From a virus: a stretch of 42,277 nt of DNA. Location: the IMG/VR virus record IMGVR_UViG_3300045988_169545. One strand, given 5' to 3'. The translations under genes were made by a program, and so were the position numbers. Shown piece after piece: positions 4,367 to 42,162 of this stretch. Position 1 is the first letter of the stretch. Each line of letters begins with the position of its first letter. The notes beneath the pieces were generated by a model. It searched no databases and was not told the origin of the DNA. It worked only from the letters and a program-made list of their open reading frames with translations.

Positions 4367-4672
4367 CTAGCCAACTCCGATGCTCGCGAGCGCCCAGCCC
4401 ACGGCGGCCGCCACGAGCGCCCACAGCGCCCTGTCGGCCATGTTCTCCCAGCGCTTCGCGGGCCTCGCCTCCAGGACGGCGAGCCTCTCGTTCATGGCGT
4501 CTATCCGCTGCTGGTTCTGCCGCTCTATCTCCTTGAGGGCGGCGAGCGTCTCGTTGAGCGCGGATAGCTGCTCCTGGTGCTCGTCTATCTTCTTGCTATG
4601 CAAGTCAAGTCGCCTGTCGTGCGCGCCTATGGCGCGAACGTGGGCCGAGTGCTGGGCGCAACTCCCTTCCAT
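4367..4672 (-). CDS. XhlA-like lysis-associated protein (coiled coil plus C-terminal transmembrane helix), 101 aa.
   Basis: Coiled-coil heptads (LSALNETLAALKEIERQNQQRIDAMNERLAVLEA) followed by a C-terminal hydrophobic helix (LWALVAAAVGWALASIGVG). AAGGGAGGTGA Shine-Dalgarno sequence before the ATG at 4672. Confidence 0.55.
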   Translation of the reverse strand: MEGSCAQHSAHVRAIGAHDRRLDLHSKKIDEHQEQLSALNETLAALKEIERQNQQRIDAMNERLAVLEARPAKRWENMADRALWALVAAAVGWALASIGVG

Positions 4673-4757
4673 CGCATCACCTCCCTTCTATGCACAAGTC
4701 AAGTCTGCGTGCGCACCTGGCTATCGGGTAGCGCCCGATCCCGTTGCCTTAGTCGCC

Positions 4758-4811
4758 CAGAATCCCACGCTCGCCTACGCTCGATCTCCCGCGAAAACGC
4801 GTGGGATTCTG
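4758..4811. promoter_or_regulatory. 13-bp perfect inverted repeat (CAGAATCCCACGC ... 28 bp ... GCGTGGGATTCTG) 20 nt upstream of the recombinase start. Each arm carries GCGTGGGATTC, the left-arm motif of the inversion site in the expressed gene.
   Basis: Read directly from the sequence. The 11-mer GCGTGGGATTC is shared with site 6977..6999 (reverse strand). Confidence 0.5.
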
Positions 4812-4831
4812 CGAGAGGAAAGAGGTCAGAA

Positions 4832-5743
4832 ATGAAGCTGGGAACCTACTACGAGGAGACCTACGTGCTGCGCTACCTGTCTCTGTCGCCGACCACGGTG
4901 CAGGGGTACGAGAGCAGCTACCACCTCCACGTCGAGCCGCAGTGGGCCGATTGGGAGATGCACGAAATCAGGGTCAAGCACATCAACACGTGGCTCGCGA
5001 CCGCCTTTATGGACAACCCCGGAGGGGCGGAAAAGGCGTACAAGGTGCTGCGCCAGATACTCCATGCTGCGATGGGCGACGAGGAGTACCCGGACGATGT
5101 TGTAGATCCCACCACCCGCGGCGTCCGCAAGCCCAAGATGCCATGGCACGAGGACGCCCCACGGCTAAGCCCGAAGGAGGTCAAGCAGCTCCTCATCGGC
5201 GTCGTGGGCTGGGAGTACGAGCCCGTGGTGATCTGCGGCGTGTGGCTCGGGCTGCGCCGCAGCGAGGCGTGCGGGCTGCAATGGAGGGATATCGACCTGC
5301 GCACGGGCCTGGTGCGCATCAGGCGCGGCGTGCACTACGTCAAGGGCAAGGTTGTCGTAACCAAGACCAAGACGCACCGCAGCCAGCGCCCGCACATGCT
5401 CCCCAGGACGGCCATAGAGCGCCTGCGCGCGATAAAGCGCGAGCGCAGGGCCAAGCCCACCGACTGGATCATGGGCGACGAGCTGGGCGTTGACGTCCAC
5501 CCAGACCGCTATGCCCGTAGGTTCCGGGCCTTCTGCAATCGCAACGACTTACCCTACGTGGCGCCGAAGTACTTCCGCCACACGTTTCGCAGCAACGCCC
5601 GGAAGGCGGACATACCAGAGCAGGATATCCAGAAGATGCTTGGGCACAGGGAGTTAGAAACATCCTACATCTACATGGAGCTTGATGAGGACGTGCTGCG
5701 CGTAGACCAGCGCGCCCACGAGCGGCTGATCCTGCGTGCGTAG
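4832..5743 (+). CDS. Short tyrosine site-specific recombinase (XerC/Rci-like, 303 aa) with no arm-binding N-domain. Putative DNA invertase for the adjacent cassette array.
   Basis: Catalytic signature residues are present: ...LGLRRSE (Arg), KYFRHTFRS (His-x-x-Arg), LGHRELETSYIYM (His, Tyr nucleophile). A GAGAGGAAAGAGG Shine-Dalgarno sequence precedes the ATG. Its stop TAG (5741..5743) is part of the first conserved recombination site. Confidence 0.9.
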   Translation: MKLGTYYEETYVLRYLSLSPTTVQGYESSYHLHVEPQWADWEMHEIRVKHINTWLATAFMDNPGGAEKAYKVLRQILHAAMGDEEYPDDVVDPTTRGVRKPKMPWHEDAPRLSPKEVKQLLIGVVGWEYEPVVICGVWLGLRRSEACGLQWRDIDLRTGLVRIRRGVHYVKGKVVVTKTKTHRSQRPHMLPRTAIERLRAIKRERRAKPTDWIMGDELGVDVHPDRYARRFRAFCNRNDLPYVAPKYFRHTFRSNARKADIPEQDIQKMLGHRELETSYIYMELDEDVLRVDQRAHERLILRA

Positions 5744-5761
5744 CATTCGGTATCCCCCGTC
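5738..5761 (+). repeat. Putative inversion site 1 (GCGTAGCATTCGGTATCCCCCGTC). The TAG is the recombinase stop codon.
   Basis: One of a family of five related sites. 18/19 identity to the inverted site over ATTCGGTA(T/G)CCCCCGTC. Confidence 0.6.
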
Positions 5762-6046
5762 ATGATCATCGATGACGGCAAAGTCTCGGTGCAGCAGGCG
5801 GGATGTCACATCATAGCTTGTTGCAGGGCTAATGTTGGTGATATCCCTCCATGGGGCACCATACACCTAAAGGATGGACTGCCTAAGCCGGCGAAAGCAG
5901 TTTCAGCAGCGGTGACAGTCCAGGATGCTTCAGCTGTTTGTGCAATTGCCACGATCGGCAGTGACGGAACGCTTCTGCTTGATAATAAATCTAGCGCATC
6001 TGGCGCCGGTTGGGTGTTTTTCGAGATCTCGTATTTCACAACGTAG
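5744..6046 (+). other. Silent alternative C-terminal cassette A (100 codons). It is in frame with its site and is bounded by a TAG stop inside site 2.
   Basis: Open reading frame from the site core to TAG 6044..6046. Same frame (position mod 3 = 2) as the recombinase and cassettes B and C. Confidence 0.55.
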
Positions 6047-6064
6047 CATTCGGTAGCCCACGCA
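6041..6064 (+). repeat. Putative inversion site 2 (ACGTAGCATTCGGTAGCCCACGCA).
   Basis: Identical 17-mer TAGCATTCGGTAGCCCA to site 3. Located exactly at the cassette A/B boundary. Confidence 0.65.
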
Positions 6065-6382
6065 AGTGGGGTGATCACCCCGGTGTTTAACCTCGAGACC
6101 AGCTGGCAACTCACGCGGCGTGCCGGATGGGCGTACCTAGACCTCCGCGCGTACACTCTGCAGTCGGCGTTTGAGACATGGAGCACGCCCATCGCCAGGC
6201 TGCCCGAGGGGTTTCGGCCTGCGAAAAACATACGCTCGATGTGCATGATCGAGGCCCAGTATTGGGAGCAGGTGGCACCGGGATATGTGACCATATTCCC
6301 CAATGGGGATGTGGAGCTAGATTACCGCGTCAACTTCGCGCCGTACACATGCGACGTCTCGGCGGTGTTTCCCCTCGCGTAG
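6047..6382 (+). other. Silent alternative C-terminal cassette B (111 codons).
   Basis: In-frame ORF from site 2 to TAG 6380..6382, with the stop embedded in site 3. Confidence 0.55.
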
Positions 6383-6400
6383 CATTCGGTAGCCCAGGCC
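6377..6400 (+). repeat. Putative inversion site 3 (GCGTAGCATTCGGTAGCCCAGGCC).
   Basis: See site 2. Located at the cassette B/C boundary. Confidence 0.65.
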
Positions 6401-6637
6401 GTCGTGAAGGCCGCGAAGGTCGTGCTTGACAACTTCCGCACGTCCTCGACGGTTGTTGTGACGGTGCCCGTCGCGTGGCCGGTCGACGTCTCGCGCGTGG
6501 TCGCCGTCGTACCGTCGTATGTGTGCCAAGAGTACTCGGACCGCATCGTCGTATCCGACTGGGGTGCCGACGGCGTGGATGTGCGCGCGGGCGTCGACCA
6601 GAACGTCTCCATGACGCTGCATGTCCTCTACGTGTGA
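6383..6637 (+). other. Silent alternative C-terminal cassette C (84 codons).
   Basis: In-frame ORF from site 3 to TGA 6635..6637, with the stop embedded in the degenerate site 4. Confidence 0.5.
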
Positions 6638-6650
6638 TTCGGTAGCGTGG
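6632..6650 (+). repeat. Degenerate site 4 (GTGTGATTCGGTAGCGTGG).
   Basis: Core ATTCGGTAGC is retained, but the left arm has diverged (TGA in place of TAG CAT). Confidence 0.4.
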
Positions 6651-6674
6651 TGGCCGTGTACTAGCCGTAGCCCG

Positions 6675-7103
6675 CTACGACAGCTTGCCAATCCAGACAA
6701 GCTGGTAGTCGAAGTGGAGGCCGATTGATGACTCTGCGTCGGGCCATGCAACGATCTCTACGGAATCGTAGGTTGTCTTGTTGATATAGGCGTCCTTAGC
6801 TGACCAACCTCCCGTGCGCCTGGCAATCCCGGCATAAAGACACGACTCGACCCGTCTCGGCAATTCGATGGTCTTTATATTTTCGCCCGCTTTGAGCAGC
6901 GTAAACGAGTCCCAAAAAGTGAAGATTGCGCAGTTGTCGGGCAGTTGCAGCATGCTCCAGTGGCCCCCTAGATCGACGGGGGCTACCGAATCCCACGCGT
7001 CGTTCGCGGCGGCGATTCCGTCCTCCATATGGTTGAGCCTGTCGGCCGTCAGGGTGGTTCCGCCAGACACCAAGTCACGCCAGATTTGCTTAAGGTAACT
7101 CAT
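6675..7103 (-). CDS. Tail-tip / putative receptor-binding protein (142 aa) with a 37-aa constant N-terminus and an invertible variable C-terminal cassette (currently cassette D).
   Basis: Last gene of the tail-fibre module, with its ATG overlapping the upstream stop (ATGA). It contains inverted site 5 at the junction between the N-terminal part and the remaining 105 aa. Confidence 0.65.
   Translation of the reverse strand: MSYLKQIWRDLVSGGTTLTADRLNHMEDGIAAANDAWDSVAPVDLGGHWSMLQLPDNCAIFTFWDSFTLLKAGENIKTIELPRRVESCLYAGIARRTGGWSAKDAYINKTTYDSVEIVAWPDAESSIGLHFDYQLVWIGKLS
6977..6999 (-). repeat. Inversion site 5 inside the expressed tail gene, in inverted orientation to sites 1-4 (reverse strand reads GCGTGGGATTCGGTAGCCCCCGT).
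   Basis: The reverse complement of 6977..6999 shares the 12-bp core ATTCGGTAGCCC with sites 2 and 3 and 18/19 bp with site 1. It lies at codons ...A-W-D-S-V-A-P-V..., 37 codons into the gene. Confidence 0.65.
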
Positions 7104-7240
7104 GCTATCTCCTCCTTGATCGCCGCGCGCTCCTCGTCGGTGAGCTTGGTGTAGGACGCCAGCACGGCGTCCACCTCCTCGCCCCTCGCGACCCGGATGG
7201 CCGCGGCCTTAGCGATGATGGTCAGCTGGATCTTCGTCAT
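7100..7240 (-). CDS. Small XkdX-like tail-fibre-associated protein, 46 aa (MTKIQLTIIAKAAAIRVARGEEVDAVLASYTKLTDEERAAIKEEIA).
   Basis: ATG at 7240 and stop overlapping the downstream ATG (ATGA). Its size, position next to the fibre genes and the ...LT.EE...I.. pattern resemble XkdX-family proteins. Confidence 0.4.
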   Translation of the reverse strand: MTKIQLTIIAKAAAIRVARGEEVDAVLASYTKLTDEERAAIKEEIA

Positions 7241-7244
7241 TGCC

Positions 7245-7706
7245 TCACGCCCCAATCACGTCGGCGAGCACGAGCACGATCTCGCTGGTGGTCTCCTCGA
7301 CCGAGCCGAGCCGCGCGGGCGCGCCCGCCATGAACTCCTCGCGCTCGGCTGCCTTGCGCGCCTCCTCGGCCGCACGCTCCTCGGCCTCCTTGCGCGCCTG
7401 CTCCTGTGCGAGCCTCTCGGCCTCCATGGCGGCCAGCTCGTCGGAGGTGTAGGGCGTGTAGACCATGCAGTCCTCGTACTCGTCCCATGCGGGGACGGGA
7501 GGGCTGTACTCCTGCACCACGACCGTTTGCAGGTCCTTGCCCCCGTTGGGGTAGACCTTGATCGGGTTGTCGTAGTCGATCTCCTCGATGCGCTCCCTCT
7601 CCGGCACCGCGTCGTGGTGTGCGACGAGCCTTTTCGCCGGCTCCAAGCGGCCGAGCGCCGGATCGGGGTTGTCGACCTCGTTCCATTCGGCATCGTACGT
7701 TCTCAT
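7245..7706 (-). CDS. Hypothetical tail-module protein, 153 aa, with an Ala/Glu/Arg-rich coiled-coil segment.
   Basis: ATG at 7706 with a GGAGAGGG Shine-Dalgarno sequence. The first 230 aa of the computed 383-aa ORF are Arg/Gly-rich alternate-frame noise. Confidence 0.5.
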   Translation of the reverse strand: MRTYDAEWNEVDNPDPALGRLEPAKRLVAHHDAVPERERIEEIDYDNPIKVYPNGGKDLQTVVVQEYSPPVPAWDEYEDCMVYTPYTSDELAAMEAERLAQEQARKEAEERAAEEARKAAEREEFMAGAPARLGSVEETTSEIVLVLADVIGA

Positions 7707-8431
7707 CAGCTCACCCTCTCCCATATCTTGTAGCCCATGAACAAATACGTGTCCGTCCGCTTCGTCCAGCTCCCGCCGAACTTCTCCGCGGGGGACTCGC
7801 CGCCCTTCGTGATGTAGATGCTGTCCTTCGGCCGGTAGTCGGTGGCGGCGCCCGTCGGGGGCACCTGCCACGCCCCGTCGCTTCTCAAGTAGCGGTTGGC
7901 CGTTCCCGCGGCAGGGGCCGGCACCAGCCCGGCCTTGCCGGCGGCCGACGCGGTGGCCCCAGTCATGGCCGAGTAGGTGGTGTTCTTGTCCGTTTCCCAT
8001 GCTCCCCACGCCGTCGCCGACGTCCCGACGCGCCAGTAGACCTTGCCGGCGACGAGGCCGATCTGCTTCGGGTAGCCCCCGGAAGAGTCCGTCCAGGGAA
8101 CCACCGTGGTGACGGCCGCATACGTCTCGCCCGAGAGCCCGACCACGCTCGCCTGCTTGAACTCGATGACGGAGCGTTTCGGATGGTTCTTCATATACCA
8201 CTCGGGCGTGTTGTTCGCGCTTCGGGTGTCGGGCACCGAGACGGCGTTGGCGAGCGTCGCCGCACCGCCCGCGCTGGCAGACCCGGCGTAGCTGTGGGTG
8301 TGGGACGAAGGCGCGAAGGTCGACGGCTTGCCCGTCACCTCGCCCCATGCGTGGGCGTGGGACTTCGCCGCGAACACGTCCTTGCACCTCGCCCACAGCC
8401 TCGCGACGCCGGAGTTGTCCAGGAACCCCAT
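7706..8431 (-). CDS. Tail fibre protein paralog 1, 241 aa.
   Basis: HxH/SHTHS-type tail-fibre repeat motifs. The N-terminus MGFLDNSGVARLWARCKD and the C-terminus ...SPAEKFGGSWTKRTDTYLFMGYKIWERVS are shared with the gene at 9418..10059. Confidence 0.75.
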   Translation of the reverse strand: MGFLDNSGVARLWARCKDVFAAKSHAHAWGEVTGKPSTFAPSSHTHSYAGSASAGGAATLANAVSVPDTRSANNTPEWYMKNHPKRSVIEFKQASVVGLSGETYAAVTTVVPWTDSSGGYPKQIGLVAGKVYWRVGTSATAWGAWETDKNTTYSAMTGATASAAGKAGLVPAPAAGTANRYLRSDGAWQVPPTGAATDYRPKDSIYITKGGESPAEKFGGSWTKRTDTYLFMGYKIWERVS

Positions 8432-8435
8432 TGCC

Positions 8436-9416
8436 CTACACCAGGATCGCGTCGAGCTCGGCGGCGGTCATGGCCTGGATGTTGTTCTGCACGACCGAGA
8501 AGTGCGAGGCCGCGTAAGCGCTGCCCTTGTCGGTGTTCGCGAACACCATGTCGCCCGGCTCGCACGGCTGCCCGACGTAGGTTCCCGCAGCGCCGACAAC
8601 CCAGTACCAGCCCTTCTTGTAGGCGGAATCGCTTATCGCGGCGTTCGACGACACGGTCCCCTGGAAGATGGCGTGGCCGACGGCGGAGGCCGTCACCGCC
8701 GATTGGACGAAGGCGGTAGTCGCGATCTGGGTCGTGCTCGTACCGGCCGCGGCGGTCGGCGCCTTGGGCGTGCCGGTCAGCGTGGGGGATGCCGCGGGAG
8801 CCTTCGCGTTCCACGCGGCCTTCTCCGTGTCGGTGGCGAACCGGTGCGTGGCGTCCTGGGTTATCATCGTCGCCGCATGCGAAGATGGGTGCGTGTAGTT
8901 GTTGGCGCCTGACGCCACCCCATCGAGCTTCTTCTTGTCTGCGGCCGCCATAAGGCCGGCCGCAGACTGGGTGGCCGAGGAATAGGTGGTGTCCTTCGCC
9001 GCAACCGTCAGCTTGTCGTTCGCGGCGTCGGCGGTGATCGTCACGTTGGTCCCCGCGACGATCGTCAGCGTGTCGGTGGCGGAGTCGGCCGCGACGTCCA
9101 CCGAGCCGACCGCCACGTGGGAAAAAGCGTTCTGGTTGGCGTAGGTGGGATGCGAATGCGAGGAGGCCGCCTTGCCGTCGAGGGCCGCCTTCACCACCTT
9201 GTTCTGCACCGGGTTCTCGCTCGTTGCCGACAGGGCAGAGTCGACGTCCACCTTCGCCGCCTCCGGGTCTATCCCGTCGAGCTTGGCCTTGTCCTCGGCG
9301 CTCATGTAGCCCGGAGCGCTCGCGGACGCCGACGAGTGCGTGTGGCCTCGCGGCGAGAAGAACTCCTCGATACGGCTCCACAGCTTCGAGAGCGCGTCAT
9401 TGTTTACAGCTGGCAT
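8436..9416 (-). CDS. Tail fibre protein paralog 2, 326 aa.
   Basis: N-terminus MPAVNNDALSKLWSRIEEFF. SHSH and HPSSH motifs. It shares the block SATSENPVQNKVVKAALDGK with paralog 3. Confidence 0.75.
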   Translation of the reverse strand: MPAVNNDALSKLWSRIEEFFSPRGHTHSSASASAPGYMSAEDKAKLDGIDPEAAKVDVDSALSATSENPVQNKVVKAALDGKAASSHSHPTYANQNAFSHVAVGSVDVAADSATDTLTIVAGTNVTITADAANDKLTVAAKDTTYSSATQSAAGLMAAADKKKLDGVASGANNYTHPSSHAATMITQDATHRFATDTEKAAWNAKAPAASPTLTGTPKAPTAAAGTSTTQIATTAFVQSAVTASAVGHAIFQGTVSSNAAISDSAYKKGWYWVVGAAGTYVGQPCEPGDMVFANTDKGSAYAASHFSVVQNNIQAMTAAELDAILV

Positions 9417-9417
9417 G

Positions 9418-10059
9418 CTACCCCACCCTCTTCCAAATGCAACAGCCCATGAACAAATACGTGTCCGTCCGCTTCGTCCAGCTCCCGCCGAACTTCTCCG
9501 CGGGGGACACCCCCGGGTCCATGAGCGCCCACTTCCCCACCGGCTCGCCCTCGTAGGCGGCCTCCTCGGAGCCGGACGGCGCGGGGCAGGCCGCCTCTAT
9601 CTCCGCATCCGTCATCCCCTTTACCGCAGCCGTGATAGACGCGTTGGCCGAGCCGTCGAAGGTCGCCGAGCCCGTGACGTCGCCGGAGAGCGACAGCGTG
9701 CGCGCGGTCGCGAGCTTCGAGGCGGCCGCCGCGGTGCCTCCCGTGGCCAGCTTGCCGTCGAGGGCGGCCTTCACGGCCTTGTTCTGCACGGGGTTGGCAG
9801 ACGTTGCCGACAGGGAGGCGTCCACCGTGGTCTTGTTCGCGCCATCGGCGATGCCCTGCAGCTTGGCCTTGTCGGCAGCGCTCATCGCGCCGGGCGAGCT
9901 CGTGGTCGCATCCGGTATGGTGACCTGCGAGAGGATGACCGGGGTGTCGGCCTTGTTCTCAAGCGTGATGGTCGTTCCGCTCACCTTGAGGCGCGCCCCG
10001 AACGTCGCCTTGGCCTTGGCCCAGAGAGCCGCAACGCCTATCTGGTCGAGAAAACTCAT
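9418..10059 (-). CDS. Tail fibre protein paralog 3, 213 aa.
   Basis: N-terminus MSFLDQIGVAALWAKAKA. Its C-terminal 22 aa are near-identical to paralog 1 (the 64-bp DNA repeat 9444..9507 = 7733..7796). Confidence 0.75.
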   Translation of the reverse strand: MSFLDQIGVAALWAKAKATFGARLKVSGTTITLENKADTPVILSQVTIPDATTSSPGAMSAADKAKLQGIADGANKTTVDASLSATSANPVQNKAVKAALDGKLATGGTAAAASKLATARTLSLSGDVTGSATFDGSANASITAAVKGMTDAEIEAACPAPSGSEEAAYEGEPVGKWALMDPGVSPAEKFGGSWTKRTDTYLFMGCCIWKRVG

Positions 10060-10068
10060 AGCACCTCC

Positions 10069-10455
10069 TTAGAGCGCTTCGATAAAGGCGAGCGGTATGG
10101 TGTCGGCCCGCACGCCGTCTATCGTCTGCATGGTCACGTCCGCGCTTATCACGCGGTCCTCGATGGTTATGCCCTCGCCCGCCTCGTAGGAGACGCCGGC
10201 CTGCGACAGCTCGTGCTCGAGGCGCGCCGCGTCCTTGGCGGCGAAGGCTACGCAGTTCGCGCCGTCGGCCACGTAGCACACCGTGTCGCCGACCTCGCAG
10301 TAGACGTAGGTCGAGGCGTATACGGTGCCTCCCGCCTTGGCGGCGATGACGAGGGTCGAGCCCTCGATCCCCACCACCTCGCCGAACCGCAGGCGGAAGG
10401 ACGATCCCTCTTCCTTGCCCACCAACGGCAGTATGTCATCGAGCATCAGCTTCAC
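10069..10455 (-). CDS. Hypothetical tail/baseplate-associated protein, 128 aa.
   Basis: Sits between the distal tail proteins and the fibres. ATGA overlap with the upstream gene. Confidence 0.5.
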   Translation of the reverse strand: MKLMLDDILPLVGKEEGSSFRLRFGEVVGIEGSTLVIAAKAGGTVYASTYVYCEVGDTVCYVADGANCVAFAAKDAARLEHELSQAGVSYEAGEGITIEDRVISADVTMQTIDGVRADTIPLAFIEAL

Positions 10456-15960: not shown

Positions 15961-16721
15961 TCATCCTCCTTTCTGCTCTACCGGCTCCCATTCGGTCGCC
16001 GCGATGGCCTCTTTGGCCGACCGCGCCCGCTCCGCAGCCCGCCTGCGCTCCGCGGCATCCGCTGGGCGCGGTGTGCGCGGGGACTCGGATTGCACGCCAG
16101 CCTGCGCGAAGGCTATGGCCCATAGGTCGTCCTGCAGGTCGGCCACGGCGTGCCTCCATTCGGGCCACGCGTGCTCCGGGTGCCTCGAGCGCACGTAGAG
16201 CGAGCCCGGCGGCAGGGTGAGCACGAGGTCGAGCGCCTCGTCTGCAGGCACCTCGTCGTAGGCGCAGCCGTACACGCGCCTGAAGTCGTGGCGTAGCTCG
16301 CGCAGCCGGCCATCCTCGAGCCGTGCGAGCCTTAGAAGTTTTTTAGTTCTTGCGAGGTGATGATCTTCGCGACGGCAAGCGCCATCGCGTCGATGTCGAC
16401 CGTGCCGTCCTCGTCGGTGCACGCGCGCTCAAGCTCGGTCATCTGCTCGTCGCCGAGCATCAGGCGCATGGCCTCCTCGGTCTCCGCGTCGGTTCGGTTC
16501 GGCTTGGCCAGAAGGTCGCACACCCGCTTGTCGCGCGCCCTCTTCACAGGCACCTCGACGTCGAGGCCGAGCACGCGGATGCTCGCCGCGCGCTCGCGCC
16601 GGCTGCCGATGAGCCTCGCCTTCTCCTCGGCCGACTTGGCAGGGGATGTAGCTATGCCCGCGACCTCGCCGTACTCGTCGAGCTCTGCGGCGCTCATGCG
16701 CGCCATGAAGTCCTTGTTCAC
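15961..16721 (-). CDS. Tail assembly chaperone G-T fusion (about 253 aa) made by a programmed -1 ribosomal frameshift at 16338..16346.
   Basis: The minus strand reads CTA AAA AAC. Slipping -1 at A_AAA_AAC continues as KKLLRLARLEDG..., which is exactly the N-terminus of the overlapping ORF at 15961..16422. Confidence 0.6.
16332..16721 (-). CDS. Tail assembly chaperone (gpG-like), 129 aa.
   Basis: Between the major tail protein and the tape measure. It ends ...ELKNF* with the slippery heptamer A_AAA_AAC in the zero frame. Confidence 0.7.
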   Translation of the reverse strand: MNKDFMARMSAAELDEYGEVAGIATSPAKSAEEKARLIGSRRERAASIRVLGLDVEVPVKRARDKRVCDLLAKPNRTDAETEEAMRLMLGDEQMTELERACTDEDGTVDIDAMALAVAKIITSQELKNF

Positions 16722-40617: not shown

Positions 40618-42162
40618 ATGTATGATAGCATGCCCGCCGAGTGGTTGTGTTGCGCCTACTTGCGAAAATCACGCGAGGACGAGGAGCGTGAGAAGCAGGG
40701 TAGGTACAAGACGCTCGAACGTCATAAGGCTATCCTTGAAAGCCTATCGTCTGACAACGGCCATAAGATCGCGCAATGGTATCCCGAGATCGTAAGCGGT
40801 GAGACCATCGAGGGCCGCCCCGAAGTAAAGAAGCTGCTCGCTGACCTTGCGTCTGGAAAATGGGATGCCGTGTACGTGGTGGAGGCATCACGCCTTGGAC
40901 GTGGAGGCGGAAGCGATCAAGAGAAGATCGTGAACGCTTTTCGGTACACGAACACATGGCTCGTGACCGAGGAGAAGGTTTACGACCCGTCATCCAAAGC
41001 CGATATGCGCCAGCTCAAAAACGACCTGCGCAGCTCGGAAGACGAATTGGACAGCATAACCACCCGCCTCACCCGCGGCAAGTATCGCTCGGCACAGGAA
41101 GGCAGATGGCAGGCCACCGGGCGCACGCCTTACGGGTGGCGCGCCGTGCGCATCGCGGGCCTCTGGCAGCTAAGGCCCGACGAGAACCACTGTCACATGC
41201 TGCGCATATACGACCTCTTGGAGAGCGGTCTTACCCCATGGGACGTGGCGAACATCTACAACGCAGAAGGCATCCCGACGCCAAGAGGAGGCGATCACTG
41301 GACCGCGGCCATCGTGCGAGCCATCGCGCTCAACCCCGCCAACTGCGGGTACGTTGTGTTCGGCAAACACAAGACCATGCGCATTTTTGACCCGGTGACT
41401 TTCGAGGCGAAGAAGGTACGTGTAAAGAACGACAAACCAGTCATGGTGAAGGGCTTGCACTACGGCACGGGAGGCATCAGCGAGGAGCGCTTCGAGCGCA
41501 TCACCGGGCACCTTGTCGGTTCAGCCCACCTGCGCAAGGGCTTGGAACTCAAAAACCCCCTGGCCCGTCTGCTGAAATGCGGCAAGTGCGGCTATGCGAT
41601 GAACCACCACCGCATGAGCTCGGGCAAAAGCTACGGGTACTTTTACCAACACCCGGCAAAAAGGAACATGACGCGCGCGTGCGACGGATGCCGCGGTGCG
41701 AGGGATGACCTGGTTATGGACACGTTGGTGGCATCCCTCCGCAGCCTGTGCAACGACATAGAGCTGCGCATCAAGGCCGACAATAGGGCGAGCGAGCACG
41801 AGGCCCATATCGAGGCCCTGCGAAAGGAGCTGGAGAAGGTGCGCGCCGCCAGAAGCCGCGCCATGGAAGCCTACGAGGCAGGCGCCTACACCATCGCCGA
41901 GCTCAAGGCCCGTAAAGACGAGGCGGAGAAGCGCATGGAGAGTATCGAGCGTGCGATCAAGGACGCCAAACCGCCGAAGTACACGCCGGAGCTGGTGGTG
42001 TCGATAAACAAGTGCATCGACATGTTGCTTGACGATACCGTATCCGTGCAGGTCAAGAACGATTTCCTGAAGTCGGTCATAGGGAGGATCGATTATTACA
42101 ACGATACTCCCCCGTTCGTGCACGACAACAAGGTACACCTAGAGATTTTTCTTCGCCAATAA
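40618..42162 (+). CDS. Large serine recombinase (phage integrase), 514 aa.
   Basis: N-terminal resolvase catalytic domain with the nucleophile in AYLRKSRED. Recombinase domain. Zinc ribbon CGKCGYAMNHH...CDGC. C-terminal coiled coil. Adjacent to the terminal repeat and putative attP. Confidence 0.9.
   Translation: MYDSMPAEWLCCAYLRKSREDEEREKQGRYKTLERHKAILESLSSDNGHKIAQWYPEIVSGETIEGRPEVKKLLADLASGKWDAVYVVEASRLGRGGGSDQEKIVNAFRYTNTWLVTEEKVYDPSSKADMRQLKNDLRSSEDELDSITTRLTRGKYRSAQEGRWQATGRTPYGWRAVRIAGLWQLRPDENHCHMLRIYDLLESGLTPWDVANIYNAEGIPTPRGGDHWTAAIVRAIALNPANCGYVVFGKHKTMRIFDPVTFEAKKVRVKNDKPVMVKGLHYGTGGISEERFERITGHLVGSAHLRKGLELKNPLARLLKCGKCGYAMNHHRMSSGKSYGYFYQHPAKRNMTRACDGCRGARDDLVMDTLVASLRSLCNDIELRIKADNRASEHEAHIEALRKELEKVRAARSRAMEAYEAGAYTIAELKARKDEAEKRMESIERAIKDAKPPKYTPELVVSINKCIDMLLDDTVSVQVKNDFLKSVIGRIDYYNDTPPFVHDNKVHLEIFLRQ

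Follow-up and report, generated by a model that had tools for sequence, protein, structure and literature searches.

We analyzed a 42,277-nucleotide stretch of viral DNA (IMG/VR record IMGVR_UViG_3300045988_169545; 64.3% G+C), hereafter called the window, focusing on a locus at which a tyrosine recombinase gene, rin, faces the last gene of the tail operon across an array of coding cassettes (rin > cassette array < Rc, Rc being the constant N-terminal segment of the tail protein). The window is a siphovirus-type genome or prophage. Its minus strand carries a terminase gene, a gene for a 1,048-amino-acid (aa) tape-measure protein, tail and fiber genes, and the 142-aa gene that contains Rc; the array and rin follow on the plus strand, and then holin and amidase genes on the minus strand. 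We conclude with high confidence that this locus is a Rin-type phage shufflon, by which a Gordonibacter siphovirus or prophage exchanges its presumed receptor-binding tip. Its features are summarized in Table 1 together with the cassette arrangements found in related loci.

Table 1. Features of the shufflon locus and of other genes in the window, and cassette arrangements (read from rin> to <Rc) in the window and in related loci
Feature	Position	Strand	Description
Inverted repeat upstream of rin	4753-4816	+	GAATCCCACGC (4760-4770), 28 nt, GCGTGGGATTC (4799-4809)
rin, tyrosine recombinase gene	4832-5743	+	303 aa; ATG at 4832, TAG stop in rix-1
S1 (rix-1), silent	5738-5761	+	GCGTAGCATTCGGTATCCCCCGTC; heptamer 5746-5752
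Rv-A, silent cassette	5744-6046	+	fusion would give a 137-aa Rc-A protein
S2 (rix-2), silent	6041-6064	+	ACGTAGCATTCGGTAGCCCACGCA; heptamer 6049-6055
Rv-B, silent cassette	6047-6382	+	fusion would give a 148-aa Rc-B protein
S3 (rix-3), silent	6377-6400	+	GCGTAGCATTCGGTAGCCCAGGCC; heptamer 6385-6391
Rv-C, silent cassette	6383-6637	+	fusion would give a 121-aa Rc-C protein
S4, degenerate, probable relic at the fixed convergent C/D junction	6630-6650	+	ACGTGTGATTCGGTAGCGTGG
Rv-D, expressed cassette (current state)	6675-6992	-	residues 38-142 of the 142-aa protein
S5, expression-site rix	6975-6998	-	reverse complement GCGTGGGATTCGGTAGCCCCCGTC; heptamer 6984-6990
Rc, constant 37-codon N-terminus	6993-7103	-	MSYLKQIWRDLVSGGTTLTADRLNHMEDGIAAANDAW; proposed anchor and helical neck
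Tail-fiber genes (three), upstream in the same late operon	7706-8431, 8436-9416, 9418-10059	-	PHROG tail-fiber matches
Large serine recombinase gene	40618-42162	+	514 aa; Pfam Resolvase, Recombinase and Zn_ribbon_recom
Arrangement, window			A>B>C>D<
Arrangement, L001			B>E>F>D>C<
Arrangement, L002			E>D>C<G<
Arrangement, L003			B>HI>A<
Arrangement, L004			B>D>C<
Arrangement, L005			B>D>C<E<G<
Arrangement, L006			C>D<B<J<
Arrangement, L007			HI>B<A<
Arrangement, L008			E>D>C<
Arrangement, L009			D>C<
Arrangement, L010			D>C<B<G<E<
Arrangement, L011 (recombinase 82% identical)			G>B>C>D<F<J<E<

Five related sites border the cassettes, and direct inspection of the sequence confirmed their positions, the reading frame shared by the cassettes and the stop codons embedded in the sites, as claimed in an earlier reading made from the sequence alone (the sequence-only reading), the active sites being placed and phased as it described. 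Its account of sites and genes stood overall, with three corrections: position 9 of the S1 core is T, not G; rin starts at the ATG at 4832; and S4 is a probable relic, never seen to recombine. The rin stop codon TAG (5741-5743) falls within S1, and the three plus-strand cassettes lie in one frame, their stops (TAG, TAG, and TGA) each being inside the following site. S5 occupies codons 36 to 43 of the minus-strand gene at 6675-7103, in which W37-D38-S39-V40 is written TGG GAT TCG GTA. The four active sites have the consensus CGT[A/G]G[C/G][A/C]-TTCGGTA-[G/T]CCC, and the sites span 5738-6998. rix-1 is parsed as GCGTAGC-A-TTCGGTA-T-CCCCCGTC, and the minus strand of S5, encoding A36-W37-D38-S39-V40-A41, as GCGTGGG-A-TTCGGTA-G-CCCCCGTC. 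The arms are dyad symmetric (left, CGT[A/G]G[C/G]; right, [G/T]CCC and then variable bases), and the Rc arm joined to the cassette B site reads GCGTGGG-A-TTCGGTA-G-CCCACGC. In the silent sites the left arm is weakened, because it carries TAG. The left arm CGTGGGA was found with seven different cassettes, preceded by CGACG or, in L011, by AGAAG.

The sites are highly concentrated at the locus. Allowing at most one mismatch, the 11-mer core ATTCGGTAGCC has six matches in the window against 0.53 expected, a number that none of 100 shuffled sequences reached; five of the six lie within 5745-6991, and the sixth, at 15990, looks like a chance match. A repeat search likewise recovered the direct site family and the inverted pairs S1/S5, S2/S5, S3/S5, and S4/S5. 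S4, parsed as ACGTGTGA-TTCGGTA-GCGTGG, retains the heptamer, whereas its arms differ. Both of its flanks are unchanged in every locus that bears it, which rules it out as an active site; it lies where cassette C ends and is probably a remnant of a former tandem layout.

The evidence for inversion comes from relatives. We compared 21 related loci, 19 of which are on the same backbone (99 to 100% identity in those flanks that were measured), so that 22 sequences were available with the window included. Ten of them (L001 to L010) were retrieved by exact match to the recombinase protein, and the loci were cut at the sites and the segments compared. The flanks of these ten are 99 to 100% identical to those of the window, except that the right flanks of L002, L004, and L009 are only 97 to 98% identical; their cassettes are 99 to 100% identical between loci (98 to 100% across the 19 same-backbone loci) but differ in order and orientation (Table 1). 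Further loci were found through Rc fusions. Among these, L287 has cassette B at the expression site, B being present in both orientations among the loci, and L289 has the arrangement of the window itself, while L291 (C>D<) mirrors L009 (D>C<), the two representing both states of a minimal switch. Cassette A is expressed in L003 and L007, and cassette C in L001, L004, L008, L009, and L012 (described below).

Every breakpoint among the related loci is located at a site. In all 22 sequences, the sites are ordered "+...+ -...-", the pattern that any series of inversions between opposed sites must keep. Either C/D or H/I forms the fixed convergent junction in each case, a pair that inversion at cassette starts cannot split. 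Besides, the silent TAG and expressed TGG left arms remain in place across loci, as had been predicted for a crossover inside the core. We thus regard historical inversions at these sites as shown by the comparison of assembled sequences. This bears out the proposal of the sequence-only reading that an inversion switch exchanges the C-terminus of the last small tail protein: cassettes are reordered and reoriented on near-identical backbones, with breakpoints at conserved sites, and homologs of the protein do vary C-terminal to the DSV junction.

The in-frame fusions of Rc to cassettes A, B, and C that were predicted from the window all exist as real open reading frames (ORFs) elsewhere. The in silico Rc-A, Rc-B, and Rc-C proteins are identical at 135 of 137, 146 of 148, and 117 of 121 positions to P0011, P0018, and P0024, respectively, and P0018 represents 96 member sequences. 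In an alignment of 21 sequences, 20 possess the N-terminus; residues 1 to 40 are nearly invariant and are followed by about 13 unrelated C-termini. Rc matches the N-terminal ends of minor tail proteins, both in PHROG 2012 and in mycobacteriophages, and a Pfam and NCBIfam search gave no match for Rc or any cassette. The four heads of the window are mutually only 14 to 18% identical. AlphaFold2 models of Rc-D (predicted local distance difference test [pLDDT], 83) and Rc-A (pLDDT, 81.5) consist of a helix at residues 20 to 40 and then a confident eight-strand beta-sandwich, and the switch point coincides with the boundary between helix and head in both. The head of Rc-A is similar in fold to lactococcal receptor-binding protein (RBP) heads (TP901-1-like), and that of Rc-D to pyocin-fiber and lectin domains, so that one shufflon stores heads of at least two fold classes. 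Modeling of the cassettes, which the sequence-only reading had suggested, therefore yielded RBP- or lectin-type heads for A and D, and resemblance of the Rv (variable) products to receptor-binding heads is a feature by which Rin shufflons are recognized. TP901-1 BppL, for a comparison of size, has 163 aa. On these models the Rc-Rv protein appears to be an RBP, and Rc presumably serves as a docking peptide and trimerizing neck. The G+C contents of cassettes A (52.3%) and D (54.6%) are both well below that of the window, and that of C is 65.0% (window 5756-6040 and 6675-6980 for A and D); this spread hints that the stored heads have different origins.

Nine left flanks and 11 right flanks are joined in 37 junction types at the 78 rix sites of the 22 sequences, which allowed us to map the crossover. 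The base 3' of TTCGGTA, which is G in general and T for cassettes A, H, and I, tracks the cassette in 78 of 78 sites. The base 5' of it (A or C) tracks the left flank in seven of nine flank classes and never the cassette, and at the Rc site this A is constant, preserving Asp38. These junction statistics indicate that strand exchange is confined to the invariant 7-bp TTCGGTA; 7 bp is a typical overlap length for tyrosine recombinases. The map also disposes of the suggestion that the identity of S1 and S5 over CCCCCGTC reflects a recent exchange: cassettes A and D both open with Pro-Val, encoded by this segment, and the G/T difference moves with the cassette.

Rin itself matches Pfam PF00589 (Phage_integrase; 1.1e-17), shows a weak SAM-like core-binding domain, and is without an arm-binding domain; its PHROG match is an integrase family (2.4e-38). 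Among solved structures, XerA, a XerC-like protein, and XerD come nearest, and the Arg, His-x-x-Arg, His, and Tyr motifs align with theirs. A comparison with the Xer families, advised by the sequence-only reading, thus described Rin as an Xer-like, two-domain enzyme with no arm-binding domain. The NCBIfam Xer models match it at scores far under their curated cutoffs, and Rin is therefore not a bona fide Xer protein. We saw the identical 303-aa recombinase on 111 contigs, and the assembly collection lists it in 239 indexed blocks. The nearest species-representative genome is Gordonibacter pamelaeae CCUG 55131 (L012), whose recombinase is 77% identical. Among annotated phages, the closest recombinases are the "integrases" encoded by Bifidobacterium phage PMBT6 and Siphoviridae sp. 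ctl617 (35 to 36% identity). Both are flanked by lysis genes and by a convergent tail gene, with small ORFs in between. From its place beside the array and the conserved synteny, we infer that Rin catalyzes the inversions. The role of phage integrase probably falls to the large serine recombinase, whose Resolvase, Recombinase, and Zn-ribbon architecture agrees with the division of labor put forward in the sequence-only reading.

Searches for further relatives gave little beyond these loci. Recombinase peptide patterns returned one relative per collection (L011 in the viral collection, IMG/VR, and L012, Gordonibacter pamelaeae, in the genomes). The 15-mer TGGGATTCGGTAGCC had 32 matches in IMG/VR, among which the only recognized relative was L044, the contig of L011; the others were left uninspected and most were taken as chance. 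A blastn search of window positions 4500-10100 against annotated phages returned short fragments of fiber genes and no close relative. In the assemblies themselves, a rix of L006 (GCA_025542255.1, 6140-6300) coincides exactly with an N and a duplication of 132 bp. The contigs L288, L293, and L294 stop 7 to 18 nt from a rix, and most contigs with an Rc-D gene are shorter than 5 kb. Such assembly ends beside rix sites may reflect mixed populations.

These observations fit the following mechanism. The last gene of the tail operon would encode an RBP of 121 to 152 residues, in which the first 37 codons are fixed and a beta-sandwich head is exchangeable. Head cassettes lacking promoters and start codons are stored between Rc and the oppositely placed rin. 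Each starts at a rix and ends at a stop codon in the left arm of the next rix, with the exception of C and D, which are closed by stop codons of their own at the fixed C/D junction. The arms, which are imperfect palindromes (CGTGGG and CCCACG-like), would be bound by dimers of Rin. Strand exchange would take place in TTCGGTA and would pair the one rix attached to Rc with any silent rix in the opposite orientation. The intervening DNA would then invert, joining Rc in frame to a new head and parking the old one behind TAG. The left arms stay put, the expressed site always keeping TGG-GAT and the silent sites TAG-C-A/C. Repeated inversions would permute the array and preserve the "+...+ -...-" pattern with its one fixed convergent junction (C/D here). 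Progeny of this genome would display one of four heads, and about 16 or more heads would be available across the population. A change of head would presumably alter the cell-wall glycan or receptor recognized. Switching would be ongoing within lineages at a useful rate, and host range would change with the head. The distribution of cassettes also suggests that rix sites may serve for site-specific cassette loss and perhaps for an integron-like capture.

Other explanations account for parts of these data. General homologous recombination or gene conversion between coinfecting phages at the short junctions, with the adjacent recombinase unrelated to the process, would explain why near-identical backbones differ in cassette content (2 to at least 7), and rin and Rc would offer long identical flanks for swaps of whole arrays. 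It is nevertheless very unlikely, since the sequence shared at the junctions is only about 17 to 24 bp, exchange falls within one invariant 7-bp block at each of the 78 sites, all 22 sequences obey the order expected of pure inversion, and the synteny and the TGG/TAG design of the sites are kept down to 34% recombinase identity. That Rin is instead the phage integrase, or an Xer-like dimer-resolution enzyme, beside plus-strand ORFs expressed independently as accessory genes, could be argued from the "integrase" label that databases give it and from the internal starts that ORF finders place in the cassettes (5762, 6071, and 6404). We find this highly improbable in view of the serine recombinase with full integrase architecture at the end of the genome, the missing arm-binding domain of Rin, the in-frame fusion of cassettes to Rc in other genomes, and the bounding and phasing of cassettes by the sites; besides, the recombinase invariably has such an array next to it and lies between the tail-tip gene and those for lysis.

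The differences in orientation might also be assembly artifacts at short repeats, and the three contigs ending 7 to 18 nt from a site and the flawed assembly of L006 speak for such a view. Yet repeats of about 17 to 24 bp seem too short to collapse in a standard short-read assembly, many independent assemblies are self-consistent and all follow the inversion rule, two of them NCBI genome assemblies with contigs of 163 and 168 kb, and fused ORFs recur in many samples (as with the 96 members of P0018). We consider artifacts an extremely remote explanation.

Several points do weigh against the Rin-type shufflon as we describe it. Catalysis by Rin is deduced from its adjacency to the array and from conserved synteny, and the RBP role of the 142-aa protein from predicted folds and gene position. 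All rearrangements were read from assemblies of different samples or isolates, and a metagenome scan with the 18-mer of the expressed site gave 69 matches, about 11 of them true relatives, and no informative pair of two states from the same sample. Near-identical backbones (flanks 98 to 100% identical where measured; L001, L004, L008, L009, and L290 among them) differ in having 2 to at least 7 cassettes, joined precisely at rix, and this variation in number means that deletion, acquisition, or homologous exchange also shapes the locus. Some differences between loci require several steps; the series L001, L004, and L009 is explicable by deletions between direct sites. Finally, the base 5' of TTCGGTA is imperfectly linked to the left flank, the rin or F end having 13 A and 4 C and the J end 3 C and 1 A.

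By enzyme, site, architecture, and behavior, the locus is a member of the published Rin shufflon type and not a new class. The sequence-only reading had presented it as Gin/Cin logic newly combined with the architecture of Rci, which cannot be maintained, since this is the Rin type already published (PMC6109161 and PMC8778435). Rin shufflons were described in the dnaJ2-integrated prophages Bb423phi1, Bl157phi1, and Bl30698phi1 of Bifidobacterium breve and B. longum (Mavrich et al. 2018, PMC6109161), with a tyrosine invertase gene rin, a constant Rc, variable Rv segments, and an 11-bp rix, TTCCCTAACCC; that study observed inversions both from one prophage to another and among sequencing reads. 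The present locus shares with them an armless tyrosine recombinase beside tandem promoterless cassettes for RBP C-termini that lie opposite Rc, a short asymmetric rix ahead of each cassette and one inside the gene, dissimilar cassettes (14 to 18% identity here, 6 to 30% there [PMC6109161]), and, in the cassette A model, a TP901-1-like head fold. The rix TTCGGTAGCCC of the window agrees with the Bifidobacterium TTCCCTAACCC at 8 of 11 positions, in the same TGG-GAT-TC frame, and with the PMBT6-type TTCCGTAACCC at 9 of 11. Loci with the published Bifidobacterium rix TTCCCTAACC and PMBT6-like loci with TTCCGTAACC have the same left arms, TGGGA when expressed and TAG-NN when silent. In the text of PMC6109161, neither the stop- and Trp-codon design of the arms nor a 7-bp crossover map nor the orientation invariant is stated, and a search for such terms found nothing relevant.

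There are also clear differences. Rc has 37 residues here and 168 in Bb423phi1 (PMC6109161), and it shows no homology beyond the WDSV junction to the Rc of PMBT6, the only Bifidobacterium Rc compared. The probable integrase is a large serine recombinase here, whereas the Bifidobacterium prophages have a tyrosine integrase; the host is Gordonibacter (Coriobacteriia) instead of Bifidobacterium; and cassette D is pyocin-fiber- or lectin-like, unlike the TP901-1-like heads of the Bifidobacterium systems. The heptamer is TTCGGTA here, TTCCGTA in the PMBT6 and E. lenta types, and TTCCCTA in the Bb423phi1 type, the last differing from ours at two positions, while in all three heptamer types the site encodes the junction peptide W-D-S-(V/L).

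The sites of PMBT6 and ctl617 are TAGC[T/A]TTCCGTAACCC when silent and TGGGATTCCGTAACCC when expressed. Searching IMG/VR with TGGGATTCCGTAACCC and with TGGGATTCCCTAACCC (the published rix with the predicted expressed left arm) yielded at least 120 loci each. Near the loci listed, site copies mostly have TAG two bases before TTCC, and the recombinases in these loci are 33 to 38% identical to Rin over the full length, with E values down to 1e-49. Among the matches listed, 44 IMG/VR loci with TGGGATTCCCTAACCC have a recombinase of 34.0 to 37.6% identity over about 303 aa; these are motif-bearing contigs and not the named prophages. In the course of these comparisons we observed that PMBT6 (L013) is annotated at this place with an "integrase" and hypothetical proteins, and the literature search found no description of its shufflon. 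Its Rc-Rv protein (6064-6858) has a second WDSV (SWDSVQCE, about residues 198 to 202) downstream of the rix-encoded LWDSVT. Another locus, L367 (IMGVR_UViG_3300045988_107970; 39% G+C in 1.4 kb), has a silent site TGAATAGCA-TTCCGTA-TCCC and an expressed site GTTGTGGGA-TTCCGTA-TCCCC. Judged from these sites, the Rin system may reach beyond the high-G+C phages of Actinobacteria.

Gordonibacter and Eggerthella belong to the same family, Eggerthellaceae. Clade 1 prophages of Eggerthella lenta have an analogous Rin locus with the repeat ttccgtat and H-type lectin cassettes (PMC8778435). The layout of rin, small Rv genes, and Rc is alike, and the 8-bp repeat is one base apart from TTCGGTAT in rix-1 of the window. 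In E. lenta, Rc is described as a far larger gene, and a tyrosine integrase is used at tRNA-Leu (PMC8778435); the likeness to this system is drawn from its description.

More distant parallels are found outside the Rin type. The shufflon of plasmid R64 (IncI1) uses the recombinase Rci and sfx sites to exchange C-termini of pilV, and its sites are asymmetric with a 7-bp crossover region. As here, a tyrosine recombinase swaps the C-termini of one adhesin-type protein by multiple inversions; the R64 target, however, is the tip of a conjugative pilus, and Rci has its own C-terminal domain, whereas the locus of the window acts on a phage tail gene in a tail and lysis module. The Gin, Cin, Pin, and Min invertases are serine enzymes with a Fis-dependent enhancer and a 2-bp crossover. 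Inversion by Gin of Mu, Cin of P1, Pin of e14, and Min of p15B likewise swaps a tail-fiber C-terminus, a resemblance that is functional only, and Min is multicassette as well (PMC6109161). No serine invertase adjoins the present locus, the only serine recombinase being the 514-aa enzyme about 34 kb away.

The vsa/HvsR system of Mycoplasma pulmonis, the hsdS shufflons of type I restriction-modification systems, and Tsr of Bacteroides fragilis are systems with tyrosine recombinases that also combine one expression site with several start-less silent cassettes and inversion. Compared by description, these act on cellular surface or restriction-specificity genes and use unrelated sites, whereas the target here is a virion protein; Tsr15 is cited in PMC6109161. 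In the literature that we found using the term "Rin shufflon," no Gordonibacter phage was described, and neither an inverted repeat upstream of rin nor cassette turnover at rix was reported. The very short Rc, the 7-bp crossover map, the gain and loss of cassettes at sites, and the upstream pair of half-sites described below are possibly new additions to the type.

The inverted repeat ahead of rin has arms that are each identical to the Rc-side half of the expressed rix. The arms are kept in L011 and L012, while the spacer has diverged. In leaders of the Bifidobacterium type the repeat reads AA(A/T)CCCACACG...CGTGTGGG(A/T)TT, has a spacer of 16 to 31 nt, and ends 10 to 27 nt before the ATG. 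In each of the 26 distinct rin leaders examined in IMG/VR, the top-ranking inverted repeat was an equivalent one, and such a repeat was present in L013 and L014 as well. The arm sequence itself, and not merely its pairing, is conserved down to 34% recombinase identity. The repeat also folds as an RNA hairpin (z = -2.5), but a plain hairpin is the less likely explanation, and we prefer binding by the recombinase because the half-site sequence itself is conserved across distant lineages. The repeat was rejected as a crossover partner, since its would-be overlap, TTCTGCG, differs from TTCGGTA. From its sequence, the repeat could be a candidate Rin operator, through which autorepression would set the switching rate, or an accessory site favoring inversion over deletion; how an armless recombinase prefers inversion was raised as an open question in PMC6109161. 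That the conserved half-site pair acts as a regulatory or accessory site and that cassettes turn over at rix is, taken jointly, a tentative proposal, and we hold it to be rather doubtful.

Two neighboring features of the window were noted besides the shufflon. The fiber proteins encoded at 7706-8431 (241 aa) and 9418-10059 (213 aa) have a near-identical C-terminal peptide, SPAEKFGGSWTKRTDTYLFMG, followed by YKIWERVS and CCIWKRVG, respectively, and this peptide may be a shared module. At 1697-2950 on the plus strand lies a 417-aa ORF with five Cys-rich repeats (LTGQRFG.LV..EPT....VWRC.CDCGNE......L..G...SCGC) and an AP2-like C-terminus. Backbones about 99 to 100% identical elsewhere have a gene of 237, 375, 394, or 417 aa at this position, and the number of repeats seems to vary.

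The present locus extends the Rin-type tail-tip shufflon to a common phage of human-gut Gordonibacter. The system as such will not surprise a specialist, but the isomer series, the crossover map, and the upstream half-site pair are useful additions. The 19 same-backbone loci form a clean natural isomer series, with 37 types of junction and a choice of about 16 or more heads, and this population series reveals the crossover interval, the stop- and Trp-codon design of the sites, and a topological rule kept by inversion. A lead on the regulation of armless invertases comes from the half-site pair upstream of rin, and the 37-residue anchor with its plug-in heads is a compact natural scaffold for RBP engineering. 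Because contigs often end beside these sites, host-range prediction, virome assembly, and strain tracking of Actinobacteria phages must allow for such loci.

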